Source of the DNA: Escherichia phage vB_Eco_F25
Sequence record: OP870144.1
DNA length: 64,000 bases
Strand: one strand, 5' to 3'
The position numbers and the translations under genes are program-made. Shown here one piece after another: positions 30,435 through 40,672 of this stretch (position 1 is its first letter; every line of letters begins with the position of its first letter). The notes beneath the pieces were generated by a model that was not told the origin of the DNA, did not search any database, and saw only the letters and a program-made list of their open reading frames with translations.

Positions 30435-31013
30435 TTAATTACCACGGGCTGCATTAGCAACGGCATAAGCGTACTGAACATTAGCGTCCTTAAACGTACC
30501 TTTAGAGGTATCTATTTCTGCCTTAAAGCCGCCTTTAGCCATAACATCGGCAAATTCTTTACGGAAAGCCATTGCATCAAGACCTTTCCATGATGATTTG
30601 TGCTTAGCGAATTCAAGACCAGCGTAGTTGACAGCCTTAGCTAATTTATTATCAATGACCCATTTACCGGCTTTAGGCACAAACTTCGGGCCTTTTTGTT
30701 TAGAGAACAGTTTTAAATTCCAGCGACGAAGATCACTGTCGGCTTTAACAAAAGCTGCGTCTAAGTTACTAGCAACAACATCTTCAATATGAGCAAATTT
30801 AAGTCCGTCAACTTCAATATTTAAATCGGTACGCCAGCGAAGTCCTTCCCAAGCGAAAGCTTTAAAATCGGAAGCTTTTGTAGCTAAGTATCGTTCAATA
30901 GGGGCTGTTTTAGGGTCAAAGCCGTTTCCACCACGATAGTTCCACTCGTCCTTATTAATGCCTTTTGCCTTTACTACAGAAGCTTCAGCAATAAATTCTT
31001 GATACGTTTTCAT
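30435..31013 (-). CDS. ipIII: internal head protein, IPIII-like, with capsid-targeting sequence
   Basis: N-terminal CTS MKTYQEFIAEA (prohead protease motif IAE-A); 192 aa, close to T4 IPIII size. Confidence 0.7.
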   Translation of the reverse strand: MKTYQEFIAEASVVKAKGINKDEWNYRGGNGFDPKTAPIERYLATKASDFKAFAWEGLRWRTDLNIEVDGLKFAHIEDVVASNLDAAFVKADSDLRRWNLKLFSKQKGPKFVPKAGKWVIDNKLAKAVNYAGLEFAKHKSSWKGLDAMAFRKEFADVMAKGGFKAEIDTSKGTFKDANVQYAYAVANAARGN

Positions 31014-31076: not shown

Positions 31077-31337
31077 TTAAGCTTTACCGCCAGAAATAAT
31101 TCCGAAGTTGTTAAAATCATATCCAATATCGTCAACATCTACTTTAGGGCTTGCTACAACATAAGCAATTTCACTACGTTTTGCATAGGTGTTTATTTCT
31201 CTACCATCGCCGCCTAGGAAAGAATACCCATTACGTTTTAATGAGACAAAATCTTCGGCATCACCAACGAAAGCTTTAACTTTAAATTTGGGGCCTTTGG
31301 CATCTGCTTCAGCGATAAATTCTTGATACATTTTCAT
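31077..31337 (-). CDS. ipII: internal head protein, IPII-like, with capsid-targeting sequence
   Basis: N-terminal MKMYQEFIAEA CTS; 86 aa. Confidence 0.6.
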   Translation of the reverse strand: MKMYQEFIAEADAKGPKFKVKAFVGDAEDFVSLKRNGYSFLGGDGREINTYAKRSEIAYVVASPKVDVDDIGYDFNNFGIISGGKA

Positions 31338-31790: not shown

Positions 31791-32617
<827 letters not shown>

Positions 32618-35924: not shown

Positions 35925-36091
35925 AGTTTTGTGAAAAAATTTTTTAAAAAGTTTTAGGGAATTCTAGGGAAGGGAGGGGCAATTAAAGGATAGGATAATA
36001 TATTATAAAGGGTAGAAACTAAATGATGCCTAGAGAGGTCCAGAAAGGCCTAGATACCAAAAAGCCCTATCATTTAGATAGGGATTTAAAA

Positions 36092-36655
36092 TTATTTATC
36101 TAGTTTAGTTATTATAGCTTCTGCGGCAGCTTTTAGCTTAGATGCGGTGTTAATACGATTTTTAATTTCAGTATACGCATCGCCAAGAACATCAAGGCTA
36201 TCAGAATAAACGCTTACACTATTGCGTTCGCTATTTGAAATAGAACCTTTAGTTTTACGATCAAAATCGATGTACACGTCTTGAAGATCACGGGCTGCCT
36301 TCTTTGCATCATCCAATGCATCAAGAGCTTTATTCAAAGCATTAACGTATTTTTTAGTGTCGAACATATTCTTAGAAATTTTAACAGGCGCACGTTCAGG
36401 AGTAGCTAAGGCAGATTTAGGAACCTGAGCGCCAGATGCCAGTTTCTTAGAAATTTTGAAAAATGCTTTATTGAATTTATTTTCTTGACTCATCGTAAAA
36501 GAACTATTATCAATGTTATACATTTCAATAGCTTTAGCTTTCCACTTAAGAAAATCGCCACGGTCTTTTGGGTCCAATTGGAAGAATACTTTAGTAAGTT
36601 CTGCTTCAGATGGTAATTTTGCTGCTTCGGTTAAAAATTCGGCATAGGTTTTCAT
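36092..36655 (-). CDS. capsid-targeted (internal-protein-like) protein, 187 aa
   Basis: N-terminal MKTYAEFLTEA CTS; Lys/Ala-rich. Confidence 0.6.
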   Translation of the reverse strand: MKTYAEFLTEAAKLPSEAELTKVFFQLDPKDRGDFLKWKAKAIEMYNIDNSSFTMSQENKFNKAFFKISKKLASGAQVPKSALATPERAPVKISKNMFDTKKYVNALNKALDALDDAKKAARDLQDVYIDFDRKTKGSISNSERNSVSVYSDSLDVLGDAYTEIKNRINTASKLKAAAEAIITKLDK

Positions 36656-36736
36656 TTAAAATCCTTGAAATAATTTATCGGTCAGTTATTAATTATTTAT
36701 TACTTTGTTATTATCCGTAACAGCATTCTCTATGCG

Positions 36737-36769
36737 ATTCAAACTAAAAAGCCCCAACCTTTCGGTCGA
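36737..36769 (-). terminator. rho-independent terminator
   Basis: AGCCTCGACC-GAAA-GGTTGGGGCT hairpin + TTTTTAG; near-identical copy at 37299. Confidence 0.6.
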
Positions 36770-36780
36770 GGCTAAGAATG

Positions 36781-37254
36781 TTATTTGATTTGTTTAGCAG
36801 ACCAAATGCGGTCTTTGATGATTTTTTGGAGATCTTCAACATACTCTAGGTCATGAGCATGTGGATTATCTTTGAAACTATAGGCACGGGCTAATTTTTG
36901 GCCTTCGGTTTTAATTACTAAAAGCTCTTTAAGGATAGCTTCATATTTAGCGATAATTCCTTTAACAATATTTTTTTCTTGTGCAGCTTTAGGATCTGCT
37001 TTAGGAGCAGGTTTACCGGAAGGTTTTTCGAAAGCCGCACCAGTAGCAACCAGACTTTTCCAGGCGGTGGTAACATAGTTACCCACAAAGCCTTCAGCTC
37101 TCATATCGTCGTAGAACTTGTACCGGGATTCGTCAGAAGCATCTTTATAAGAATATTTACCAGATTTAATAGCAGCAGTTGCTACAGCGCGAACATCTGA
37201 AGCGGATGCTTCATTTAACACCGCTTCATTTAAAAATTGAGCATATGATTTCAT
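36781..37254 (-). CDS. capsid-targeted (internal-protein-like) protein, 157 aa
   Basis: N-terminal MKSYAQFLNEA CTS-like sequence; late-promoter-like TATAAATA upstream. Confidence 0.6.
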   Translation of the reverse strand: MKSYAQFLNEAVLNEASASDVRAVATAAIKSGKYSYKDASDESRYKFYDDMRAEGFVGNYVTTAWKSLVATGAAFEKPSGKPAPKADPKAAQEKNIVKGIIAKYEAILKELLVIKTEGQKLARAYSFKDNPHAHDLEYVEDLQKIIKDRIWSAKQIK

Positions 37255-37291
37255 CTTATTTCCTGTTTTAATTCGTGGTTTTAATATACTT

Positions 37292-37299
37292 ATTTATAC
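37292..37299 (-). promoter_or_regulatory. late promoter TATAAATA
   Basis: Exact TATAAATA on minus strand about 40 nt upstream of the 36781..37254 start. Confidence 0.45.
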
Positions 37300-37331
37300 T
37301 AAAAAGCCCCAACCTTTCGGTCGGGGCTAAG
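37299..37331 (-). terminator. rho-independent terminator after stable RNA region
   Basis: AGCCCCGACC-GAAA-GGTTGGGGCT hairpin followed by TTTTTAG. Confidence 0.6.
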
Positions 37332-37377
37332 CCTTGCGGCAACCTTGTCGGGGTTCCACCTGCTAAGGCAAGTGTTT

Positions 37378-37537
37378 GTACGAAACGCCGGGATTCGAAC
37401 CCGGTTATTAAGCAGTTGACGCTACTCAATATTTTTAAAAGGCCATATCTCGACCATATCCGAACGTTCCGTCAAAAACGCTACTCGGCTTACGGCAAAG
37501 ATATTTCCTCGAATCGATAATTCGGTGCGCCGTTTCT
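37378..37537 (-). ncRNA. tRNA-like stable RNA (T4 RNA C/D-like)
   Basis: About 160 nt ending in T-arm CCGGG-TTCGAAT-CCCGG plus acceptor-like CGTTTCG pairing with upstream GAAACG; no ORF. Confidence 0.4.
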
Positions 37538-37644
37538 GCTGTGATATAAGGGGACATTAACAAAACATAAAGATTTATTAATGCCAGTCCTTAAACAGGG
37601 AACATCAGTCCGACGACTTGCCGGTAGCGACCCGGCTTCTTGTT

Positions 37645-37719
37645 TGGTATCCCGCCCTGGGATCGAACCAGGACCGCAAACTTAGAAGGATCGTATGCTA
37701 TCCATTACACCAGCGGGAC
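37645..37719 (-). tRNA. tRNA-Arg (anticodon TCT), CCA encoded
   Basis: Cloverleaf GTCCCGC...CTTCTAA...CCTGG-TTCGATC-CCAGG...GCGGGAT-ACCA. Confidence 0.85.
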
Positions 37720-38353
37720 GTAATTTATTTAAAAGACAAGACAAATCGGAAATCTCATCTTTTTCTAAAACTACCAAATTTTCTAAAGCTTTCCATTTAC
37801 AAAGATCTCTATCTCTTTTATATCCTTTGACTTCTATATAAAAATCATAAGTGGGTAAATAAAAATCAGGAAAATAGAGATGTTCTGAACCTTCCCATTC
37901 GTAAGGAATTGGCTTTATTTTATTAGTATATTTGATATTGTGTTCTTTTAAAAACTTAGCAACTTTTAATTCCCAGGTCCCTTTAAATTTAAACCCGTCA
38001 AACTCATATGTTTTTACTCGACCAGAAACATTAGAAGCAGAATATGAATCAGGATTATCAAGAACAGCTTGCCGCATTCTTTTAGAATGTGCTTCTTTGC
38101 GTTCATTAGACCATACATATCCAGTATTGGCTTTTCTAAGTTTTTCTCTAGTTTTATCAGAGACTTTTATTTCTTTACCTAGTTCTTTGGCTTTGGTAAA
38201 TTGATTACTACCTTTAAGACCATAACGAGGGTTATTAGGGCCGCTCATATCTAATCTATTTGGGTTAGATTTGCACCGTTTTTCATGCTGCTTTAGTGAA
38301 TTTAAATTTTTACATTCTTTAGAACAATATTGACAAAGCATAATTTTCTCCAT
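37682..38353 (-). CDS. free-standing endonuclease: N-terminal Zn finger, NUMOD3, C-terminal PD-(D/E)XK-like nuclease domain
   Basis: CQYCSKEC...HEKRC; TREKLRKANTGYVWSNERKEAHSKRMRQ; FPDFYLP...DFYIEVKG; last 12 codons lie inside tRNA-Arg. Confidence 0.65.
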   Translation of the reverse strand: MEKIMLCQYCSKECKNLNSLKQHEKRCKSNPNRLDMSGPNNPRYGLKGSNQFTKAKELGKEIKVSDKTREKLRKANTGYVWSNERKEAHSKRMRQAVLDNPDSYSASNVSGRVKTYEFDGFKFKGTWELKVAKFLKEHNIKYTNKIKPIPYEWEGSEHLYFPDFYLPTYDFYIEVKGYKRDRDLCKWKALENLVVLEKDEISDLSCLLNKLRPAGVMDSIRSF

Positions 38354-38490: not shown

Positions 38491-38548
38491 TGCTGATTGA
38501 CGGAATCGAACCGCAAGTGAGGTGCTCTACCTACTGAGCTAAATCAGC
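38491..38548 (-). pseudogene. tRNA-Thr-like gene lacking most of the anticodon arm (58 nt)
   Basis: Intact acceptor stem, D-arm GCTC-AGTAGGTA-GAGC and T-arm, but only CCTCACTTG between D-arm and T-stem. Confidence 0.7.
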
Positions 38549-40030: not shown

Positions 40031-40339
40031 CTATTTTATTCCGCGTGATGCAATTGTGTTCTGCCGTTTAACACCAGTTTGTTTAAAGTCATGATTGTCG
40101 ATTTGATCAGTACGAGCAACTCCGAATGATGATTTGATCTTAGCTTTAGATCCTTTAGTTATAGAAATAAACATCTCGGAAGCCCCTTTCTTAAAGTCCG
40201 AGGCGATTACTTCAACGCCGTTCTTAGCAAGTGACTTCAGAATTGCCTCTGCATACTCATCGTCAAGACTCGTCTGAGTATTAATAACGAATGTCTTTGG
40301 CGCAGCCGCTTCATTGATAAATTCTTTAAATGTTTTCAT
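40031..40339 (-). CDS. capsid-targeted (internal-protein-like) protein, 102 aa
   Basis: N-terminal MKTFKEFINEAA CTS. Confidence 0.6.
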   Translation of the reverse strand: MKTFKEFINEAAAPKTFVINTQTSLDDEYAEAILKSLAKNGVEVIASDFKKGASEMFISITKGSKAKIKSSFGVARTDQIDNHDFKQTGVKRQNTIASRGIK

Positions 40340-40399: not shown

Positions 40400-40672
40400 T
40401 CATTTTAAATAAATTGCGTATTTTTTATAACCCGCTGACTCATGACGAAGACCCTTATCATTAGCAAAACGCTCAATGTTATTAATTTGATTCTGGTCAA
40501 GTTCAGAGATGTCAAACACGAAAAAGTTACGTTTGTTACCAACTGTTACATAGTCAGTTAAATCAATATCATATAGGTAATTGATGTCAGCAATCAAAGT
40601 CTTGACAGCTTTGCTAATTTTTACTTTTTCGTTAAAAGCAGCTTCATTGATAAATTCTTTAAATGTTTTCAT
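40400..40672 (-). CDS. ipI: internal protein I-like, with capsid-targeting sequence
   Basis: ATG at 40672 with SD GGAG gives MKTFKEFINEAA; about 90 aa; located just upstream of 57B as ipI is in T4. Confidence 0.55.
   Translation of the reverse strand: MKTFKEFINEAAFNEKVKISKAVKTLIADINYLYDIDLTDYVTVGNKRNFFVFDISELDQNQINNIERFANDKGLRHESAGYKKYAIYLK

Follow-up and report, generated by a model that had tools for sequence, protein, structure and literature searches.

Two neighbouring open reading frames (ORFs) of Escherichia phage vB_Eco_F25 (sequence record OP870144.1) probably encode internal (Ip) proteins, directed into the prohead by a capsid-targeting sequence (CTS), packaged and processed by gp21. 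Within the window, the whole stretch of 64,000 nucleotides that was analysed, ORF187 occupies positions 36092..36655 and ORF157 positions 36781..37254, both on the minus strand. The window belongs to a Tequatrovirus, a T4-like coliphage, with 92–98% identity to complete Tequatrovirus genomes. An initial annotation had placed the two ORFs here and read them as two further CTS-bearing, capsid-targeted proteins, a reading that is now supported by the residues of the leader, the selection acting on the genes, their dispensability, the assembly machinery that accompanies them in a relative, and the listing of a homologue among the virion proteins of Yersinia phage fD1.

Two genes with a capsid-targeting leader

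The first 10 residues of T4 IPIII suffice to load IPIII or foreign proteins into the prohead core (PMC9026906; PMC3012670). Targeting depends chiefly on positions 4 and 7 and processing on positions 8 and 10; gp21 cuts its substrates behind L/I-x-E (PMC9026906). The leaders of the two ORFs, MKTYAEFLTE↓A in ORF187 (CTS at 36626..36655, minus strand; the arrow marks the cleavage site) and MKSYAQFLNE↓A in ORF157, agree with MKTYQEFIAE↓A of T4 IPII and IPIII at Met1, Lys2, Tyr4, Phe7, Leu/Ile8 and Glu10↓Ala11. Both ORFs thus share with T4 IPI–III the determinants of the 10-residue CTS and the gp21-type site L/I-x-E↓A at positions 8–11, which reads L-T-E↓A in ORF187 and L-N-E↓A in ORF157. A second L-N-E↓A lies five residues on in ORF157 (residues 13–16), giving an extended propeptide, MKSYAQFLNE↓AVLNE↓A (37210..37254, minus strand), that comprises CTS residues 1–10 and a second gp21 motif at residues 13–15. 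The same double site is found in another ORF of the window (31791..32096), in gp154 of the Tegunavirus fHe-Yen9-01 and in P0023, a remote relative of ORF187.

When the leader pattern MK.[YF]..F[LIVM].E was scored in the six-frame translation of the window, seven occurrences were found where 0.0095 were expected (~700-fold), always at codon 1 of a minus-strand ORF, which bears out the targeting signature that the initial annotation had seen shared by MKTYAEFLTEA and MKSYAQFLNEA. The seven leaders differ synonymously (ACG/ACA/ACC, ATT/ATC, GCT/GCA/GCG) with the peptide kept, and the leader is retained in remote relatives whose bodies are only 23–32% identical, such as gp154 (MLQYNEFLKESLISEA) and P0023 (MITFNEFLNESEMINEA). 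Together, the synonymous differences and the survival of the leader in remote relatives point to selection on the peptide.

Both ORFs are real genes under purifying selection, with ratios of non-synonymous to synonymous substitution (dN/dS) of 0.04–0.19. Each begins at the first possible in-frame start codon, with none further upstream, and is preceded by a Shine-Dalgarno sequence on the minus strand (AAGGA at 36662..36666 for ORF187; AGGAAA at 37259..37264 for ORF157). The 1.8 kb around them matches 741 phage records, nearly all of them Tequatrovirus (top match 97.8%), and the hosts of the matching Tequatrovirus records are Escherichia, Shigella, Yersinia and Salmonella. Among the ~760 records that share the flanks, 164 contain ORF187, at 95–99% amino acid identity and with a pairwise dN/dS of 0.09, and 511 contain ORF157, mostly at 80–90% identity with one clade at ~69%. 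The ORF157 allele of this window is present at an identity of at least 90% in only 26 of the 511; pairwise dN/dS is 0.16–0.19 for ORF157 and falls to 0.04 when two other alleles are compared. The 511 also include matches to the N-domain alone, in phages of Klebsiella and Yersinia enterocolitica. Both genes are dispensable, since they are absent from T4 and their presence is polymorphic among close relatives.

Compared with phage SA21RB, ORF157 is a mosaic in which codons 1–16 are identical, codons 17–75 have a synonymous divergence (dS) of 1.28 and codons 94–157 a dS of 0.18. This mosaic indicates that the N-domain has been exchanged for a divergent allele and that a recombination boundary lies directly after the leader. 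Positive selection as a signature of an arms race was considered and rejected, as dN/dS lies far below 1 throughout and the N-domain of ORF157 owes its divergence to the exchange of alleles (dS 1.28) and not to an excess of non-synonymous change.

The genes for gp21, gp22, gp67 and gp68 lie outside the window and were read from SA21RB, a carrier of both ORFs (98% identical for ORF187, 86% for ORF157), which encodes all four. In fD1, g140, which shares 85% identity with ORF157, is on the list of particle-associated proteins that tandem mass spectrometry coupled to liquid chromatography (LC-MS/MS) yielded for purified virions. The other CTS proteins of the region, g129 and g146, are also particle-associated, and the virion LC-MS/MS gave no sign of the small neighbouring proteins g138, g139 (e.8) and g145. 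The g140 protein is made and co-purifies with particles, a result that is supportive rather than decisive for packaging.

As precursors, ORF187 has 187 amino acids (20.9 kDa, isoelectric point (pI) 9.35) and ORF157 has 157 (17.5 kDa, pI 9.2). A cut after Glu10 would leave a mature ORF187 protein of 19.7 kDa (predicted pI 9.46) that begins AAKLPSEAELTK at Ala11, and a cut after Glu10 only would leave a mature ORF157 protein of 16.3 kDa (predicted pI 9.22). Both mature forms are basic (pI 9.2–9.5), as is mature IPIII (computed pI 9.65). In T4 heads, Lys is the only residue of the internal proteins that contacts DNA, through the phosphates (PMC3012670). ORF187 is laid out as the CTS, a helical N-domain (residues ~17–73), a Pro/Lys/Ala-containing linker (~74–98) and a long C-terminal helical hairpin (100–186); ORF157 consists of the propeptide, a three-helix N-domain (~17–73), a Lys/Pro/Ala-rich linker (76–93) and a C-terminal helical hairpin (94–157). 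The AlphaFold2 models follow a similar plan in both, with a poorly defined leader helix, a small helical N-domain, a disordered linker and a long C-terminal hairpin, and the N-domain of ORF157 is modelled at a pLDDT of 80–92.

Both ORFs match the unannotated PHROG 2280 end to end (ORF187 residues 1–181, E 3.4e-53; ORF157 residues 1–157, E 5.8e-55), and the link from this family to the Ip class is made from the leader. An hhalign comparison of the two widened sub-families aligns the C-terminal hairpins, residues 102–178 of ORF187 with 99–157 of ORF157, at 89% probability (E 2.3e-6). The shared C-domain and overall plan, combined with different N-domains, suggest that the two are distant paralogues. 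The ORF187 family is very narrow: an exhaustive HMMER search returned only 7 matches among 1.84 billion representatives, and IMG/VR holds only 3 loci, which are near-identical. P0023, one of the 7 HMMER matches, is 32% identical to ORF187. Its locus (L006 2092..2526, contig SRR28624380_555336) differs from the Tequatrovirus one, being preceded by a Phage_30_3 gene and followed by a gene with ADP-ribosyltransferase-like (ART-PolyVal/DUF3990) Pfam matches. In fHe-Yen9-01, gp154 and gp153 are encoded side by side. The first (189 aa) is 23% identical to ORF187 along its entire length (E 0.006 for a single comparison), and in the second (178 aa, MLEYSEFLKELFCEA...) the N-domain shares 52% identity with that of ORF157. 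Just upstream of this pair, a 52-aa ORF starting MKTYIEFINE (L004 1200..1358) is possibly a very small CTS-bearing protein, judging by its first residues. The ORF157 N-domain recurs, together with the leader (MKFKEFLAEA...), in gp123 of the Klebsiella Jiaodavirus KpnM6E1, whose gene comes directly after a tRNA block. In other genera this domain is joined to different C-domains, and the K/P/A linker is preserved as a feature across genera. Four metagenomic proteins (P0010, P0011, P0020 and P0021) fuse ORF187 or ORF157 fragments to unrelated sequence, such as a NudE-like C-terminus, and are either chimeras produced by assembly or genuine recombinants of this hyperplastic region.

All copies listed from GenBank, RefSeq and UniRef are named 'hypothetical protein', with the exception of a single, evidently spurious name. 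Pfam, NCBIfam, PADLOC and PDB sequence profiles gave no match above threshold for either ORF, in agreement with the initial annotation, which had seen no recognisable catalytic motif; in this the mature parts also resemble those of the T4 Ips, which are likewise unrelated to any enzyme family. A cytochrome b562 match to the C-domain of ORF187 (Pfam E 0.008; its 17 bits fall short of the cutoff of 30) was set aside as a generic helical-bundle signal. A resemblance of ORF187 to T4 IPII (28% in BLAST over 109 residues, with an apparent 'L(P)D(P)KDR' patch) was also rejected, as no alignment remains once the leaders are removed. Structure prediction followed by Foldseek, the check proposed with the initial annotation, produced helical two-domain models but matched only their own family in BFVD; the PDB hits for both models (ferritins, MukF, spectrin repeats; E of at least 0.7, TM below 0.4) were discarded. 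Part of the reason why Foldseek was uninformative is that the models have only moderate confidence and consist of two domains joined by a flexible linker. Homology to structural proteins, named beforehand as grounds for abandoning the capsid-targeting reading, was not found in the profile and Foldseek searches.

Terminator-bounded cassettes at the rnaC terminator

The local gene order is that of T4, with nudE, e.2–e.8, rnaC/rnaD and the tRNA cluster sharing the minus strand. In T4 the gap between e.8 and rnaC measures 285 bp and is geneless. In the window it contains an insertion of ~1.2 kb (36084..37295) made of two nested gene-plus-terminator cassettes. In a blastn comparison with T4 the flanks align at 94% and the insertion falls exactly at the rnaC terminator, so that the two genes do adjoin the stable-RNA/tRNA region, as the initial annotation had stated. 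Along the direction of transcription the order is rnaC, terminator T1, TATAAATA, ORF157, terminator T2, ORF187, terminator T3 and the e.8 promoter region.

T1, the rnaC terminator, consists of AGCCCCGACC-GAAA-GGUUGGGGCU and a U-tract (37301..37328, minus strand; stem 37328..37305, -20.3 kcal/mol, z -3.9). T2, its duplicate, follows ORF157 (36746..36773, minus strand; stem 36773..36750 with a GAAA loop, -17.3 kcal/mol, z -5.4) and differs from T1 at one of 24 stem-loop positions, where a G-C pair has become G-U. T3, the terminator of ORF187, is CCCUAUC-UAAAU-GAUAGGG followed by CUUUUU (36059..36083, minus strand; stem 36083..36065, -10.5 kcal/mol). Its stem is unlike those of T1 and T2, and the GGGCUUUUU tail is common to all three. 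Two near-identical GAAA-tetraloop hairpins with U-tracts on the minus strand are thus present as initially described, but the statement that each gene is followed by one of them stands for ORF157 (T2) and fails for ORF187, which ends in T3 with its UAAAU loop; T1 is upstream of ORF157. As the genes are on the minus strand, 'followed by' had held in coordinate order only.

The single copy of the rnaC terminator in T4 matches both ends of the ORF157 cassette. By this comparison T1 is the ancestral copy, which would end the stable-RNA/tRNA transcript and is the site of insertion. In fD1 the ORF157 cassette is present on its own, as T1, the late promoter, g140, T2 and a T4-like flank, and in the window T2 is followed by a nested ORF187 cassette, which T3 closes. 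The T4 comparison and the fD1 arrangement together suggest that both genes are self-contained gene-plus-terminator cassettes and came in through recombination within the terminator; the cassettes would have reached the site through the GGGCUUUUU tail of the rnaC terminator. The GGGCTTTTT patch is the short shared tail in which the cassette junctions fall.

This arrangement recalls the PeSL cassettes of T4-type phages (Arbiol et al., 2010; PMC2839356). ORF157 also lies between near-identical GC-rich stem-loops, whereas the empty site of T4 holds just one, a topology like that of RB49 ORF192 compared with phi1 (PMC2839356). The cassettes described here likewise each come with a terminator, and the ORF157 cassette also with a promoter, and their junctions fall in the GGGCTTTTT patch. 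The elements differ in that PeSL combines a sigma-70-like early promoter with a stem-loop, whereas here a rho-independent terminator is followed by a predicted late promoter.

That promoter, the exact T4 late consensus TATAAATA upstream of ORF157, is where it had first been reported (37298..37291, minus strand), with 2 nt between it and the U-tract of T1 and 36 nt between it and the ATG. SA21RB and fD1 retain it despite differences in the bases immediately downstream, and the submitters of OL960580 labelled it a late promoter. In the AT-rich window TATAAATA occurs 10 times against 11.6 expected, which is not above chance, so the significance of the copy at ORF157 rests on its position and conservation. 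For ORF187, a late-promoter-like octamer with one mismatch, AATAAATA (36701..36694, minus strand), is situated 38 nt before the ATG and also found in SA21RB; as a promoter it is putative and unproven. The minus strand from 36656 to 37330, which includes the ORF187 spacer, contains no sigma-70-type site. A MotA-box-like AATGCTGT spotted by eye for ORF187 has a spacing off the consensus and is not claimed.

The surrounding region offers further observations. Both stable RNAs, rnaC and rnaD (species 1 and 2; 37332..37644, minus strand), are 94% identical to those of T4 and match no Rfam family at the gathering threshold; they are old, functionally unexplained RNAs, apparently without a curated model. 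At the T4 segB position, a 223-aa ORF with a Cys-rich N-terminus (37682..38353, minus strand) has a sub-threshold Phage_endo_I match (E 1.6e-4) and no GIY-YIG match, and over its last ~38 nt it runs into the 5' part of tRNA-Arg (37645..37719). It is probably a homing endonuclease that differs from T4 SegB. A tRNA-like remnant at 38491..38548 (minus strand; Rfam 41 bits), missed by ARAGORN, aligns with the tRNA-Thr of T4 and lacks 15 nt of it, and with them the anticodon loop and the anticodon stem's 3' side; it is probably a tRNA pseudogene.

The other leader-bearing ORFs of the window, all on the minus strand, are in two further loci. An IPIII orthologue (30435..31013) is 95% identical to T4 IPIII. 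ORF86 (31077..31337, MKMYQEFIAEA) and ORF101 (31791..32096) flank denV and have no Pfam match. The classical ipI locus holds ORFs of 102 aa (40031..40339) and 90 aa (40400..40672), both starting MKTFKEFINEAA..., which match PHROGs 2667 and 7673 ('internal head protein'). The window reads e, ORF101, denV, ORF86, IPIII where T4 has e, ipIII, ipII, denV, and no IPII orthologue is present in the window around denV. With two CTS ORFs in place of the single ipI of T4, the window carries seven CTS proteins in three loci as compared with three such proteins in T4.

From expression to injection and the rival explanations

In the favoured explanation, late-sigma RNA polymerase would start at TATAAATA and give a short ORF157 mRNA between T1 and T2, and transcription of ORF187 would either run on through T2, the weaker of these two terminators, or start at the AATAAATA site. 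Residues 1–10 of the precursors, with Tyr4 and Phe7 as key positions, would dock on the gp22 core during prohead assembly, as the genetics of IPIII suggest. Gp21 would then cut after Glu10 and, by the L/I-x-E rule, probably once more after Glu15 in ORF157. The Lys-rich mature proteins, with their flexible linker, would stay among the packaged DNA and exit the head with it. In a new host, their action would precede any phage gene expression and take the form of stoichiometric inhibition of a host defence nuclease, with the variable N-domain serving as specificity module and the conserved C-terminal hairpin as common module. Whereas the course up to exit from the head is considered probable, this last step, in which the proteins act as pre-made injected inhibitors of host defence, is drawn by analogy with T4 and is a plausible but tentative proposal. 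The enzyme inhibited may or may not be of the GmrSD type.

Several observations weigh against parts of this explanation. Packaging, processing and injection are inferred for both proteins. The fD1 virion list comprises 113–137 of 277 gene products, including DenV, lysozyme e, NudE and thymidine kinase, and takes in about one third of the neighbouring non-structural genes; such an unspecific preparation makes the presence of g140 weak evidence for packaging. A literature search found no virion proteomics of an ORF187-bearing phage. ORF187 lacks a canonical late promoter, AATAAATA being the only candidate upstream, and T4 ipI–III have early-type promoters directly upstream where ORF157 has TATAAATA, a difference by which the regulatory layout of ORF157 departs from the T4 ip archetypes. 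No homology to mature IPI*, Ip2 or Ip3 was detected, BLAST aligning the leader only and Foldseek nothing. The AlphaFold2 models derive from shallow alignments and are of low to moderate confidence (pLDDT 63.7 for ORF187, 72.7 for ORF157). The dN/dS values of both ORFs give no sign of positive selection. Finally, Ip4–10 showed no reproducible inhibition of eight active GmrSD systems (PMC12373910), a result that makes it unsafe to equate an Ip with a GmrSD inhibitor and shows that function is not transferable by class membership alone.

The main rival accepts packaging through the CTS but confines the proteins to a role inside the capsid, in charge neutralisation, organisation of the DNA or assistance to packaging or ejection, with no host target. 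Basic, Lys-rich mature proteins with a histone-H1-like linker kept across genera would suit such a role, as would the contacts between the Lys residues of T4 internal proteins and DNA phosphates (PMC3012670). The low dN/dS, with ORF187 at 95–99% identity in its 164 phages, carries no arms-race signature, and ip4–10 yielded no defence target. However, T4 and many relatives package the same amount of DNA without these genes, the divergent N-domain alleles of ORF157 are swapped by recombination (dS 1.28 compared with 0.18), and the same N-domain is paired with different C-domains in other genera. All three T4 Ips, moreover, have specific host targets, and a purely intracapsid role is judged unlikely.

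Two further rivals deny packaging altogether. The leader could mainly be a recombination linker or a translation-initiation module, the proteins then being cytoplasmic late proteins outside the heads. Seven leaders in one window could indeed act as homology patches, and codons 1–16 of ORF157 are identical to those of SA21RB even synonymously, next to 59 saturated codons. Across the seven leaders, however, codons vary synonymously but the peptide persists, as it does in the relatives of 23–32% identity, and the fD1 homologue is particle-associated. Since ten T4 residues package foreign proteins, a bearer of the leader would be packaged whatever its origin, given gp22 and gp21, and the linker proposal is regarded as very improbable. 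That the ORFs are not expressed at all, having arisen by chance or being remnants that decay within a hyperplastic region, would accord with database copies called 'hypothetical protein' and the want of a family with known function. This view meets dN/dS values of 0.04–0.19 over hundreds of copies, a Shine-Dalgarno sequence and an own terminator for both genes and a late promoter for ORF157, and is refuted for ORF157 by the LC-MS/MS peptides of the fD1 homologue; overall its likelihood is negligible. Packaged and processed internal proteins therefore remain the preferred reading of ORF187 and ORF157.

Relation to the Ip proteins and implications

T4 Ip1, Ip2 and Ip3 are mutually non-homologous, and each inhibits one distinct type IV restriction enzyme of the GmrSD type (Silas et al., 2025; PMC12373910). 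Five GmrSD systems that are active on T-even phages have no known inhibitor (PMC12373910). Like the T4 Ips, the two proteins described here are small, dispensable, variably present and found in the gp21/gp22 lineage, and they are basic like IPIII. With the GmrSD inhibitors Ip1–3 they would share the logic of delivery, in which a pre-made protein is injected together with glucosyl-hydroxymethylcytosine DNA, and they share a genomic behaviour in which several non-homologous Ips per phage form a strain-specific repertoire. Beyond the leader there is no likeness in sequence or predicted fold: IPI* is a compact alpha/beta protein (PMC3012670), whereas both ORFs are predicted to be two-domain helical proteins with a K/P/A linker. 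The loci also differ, as the ORFs are at e.8–rnaC, T4 ipI is at 57B–tRNA.4, and ipII and ipIII are next to e and denV.

Polymorphic CTS-tagged Ip proteins of T-even phages, the Ip4–Ip13 series, were reportedly described by Repoila and colleagues in 1994 (cited in PMC12373910 and PMC3012670). The Ip class has been known since then, its logic is likewise known already, and the gain made here is incremental. Membership of these two families in the class appears not to have been recorded before. The position of the locus apart from the classical ip loci argues against an earlier naming, though not conclusively, and neither the peptide nor the DNA strings of the ORFs were found among the ip4–10 constructs in the searched supplements of Silas et al.

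On a broader and more speculative view, PHROG 2280 would be a modular injected class that combines a CTS, an exchangeable N-domain, a DNA-tethering linker and a shared hairpin, and that disarms a defence other than GmrSD. Swapping of the N-domain would then set host range, and the e.8–rnaC/tRNA junction would be a third ip locus, extending from Tequatrovirus to Tegunavirus and Jiaodavirus. Taken as a whole, this proposal is doubtful.

The duplicated terminators document how such genes slot in without disturbing neighbouring transcription. As the three T4 Ips each disarm one GmrSD enzyme and five systems are left uninhibited, unannotated CTS genes are obvious candidate inhibitors, and ORF187 and ORF157 are candidates for the missing GmrSD inhibitors or for inhibitors of other defences. 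Their families are present in hundreds of genomes of therapeutic-type coliphages and of Shigella, Yersinia and Salmonella phages, where flagging them as probable injected proteins may help to explain differences in host range among near-identical T4-like phages. The chief interest of the two genes is as ready-made candidates for anti-defence screens.

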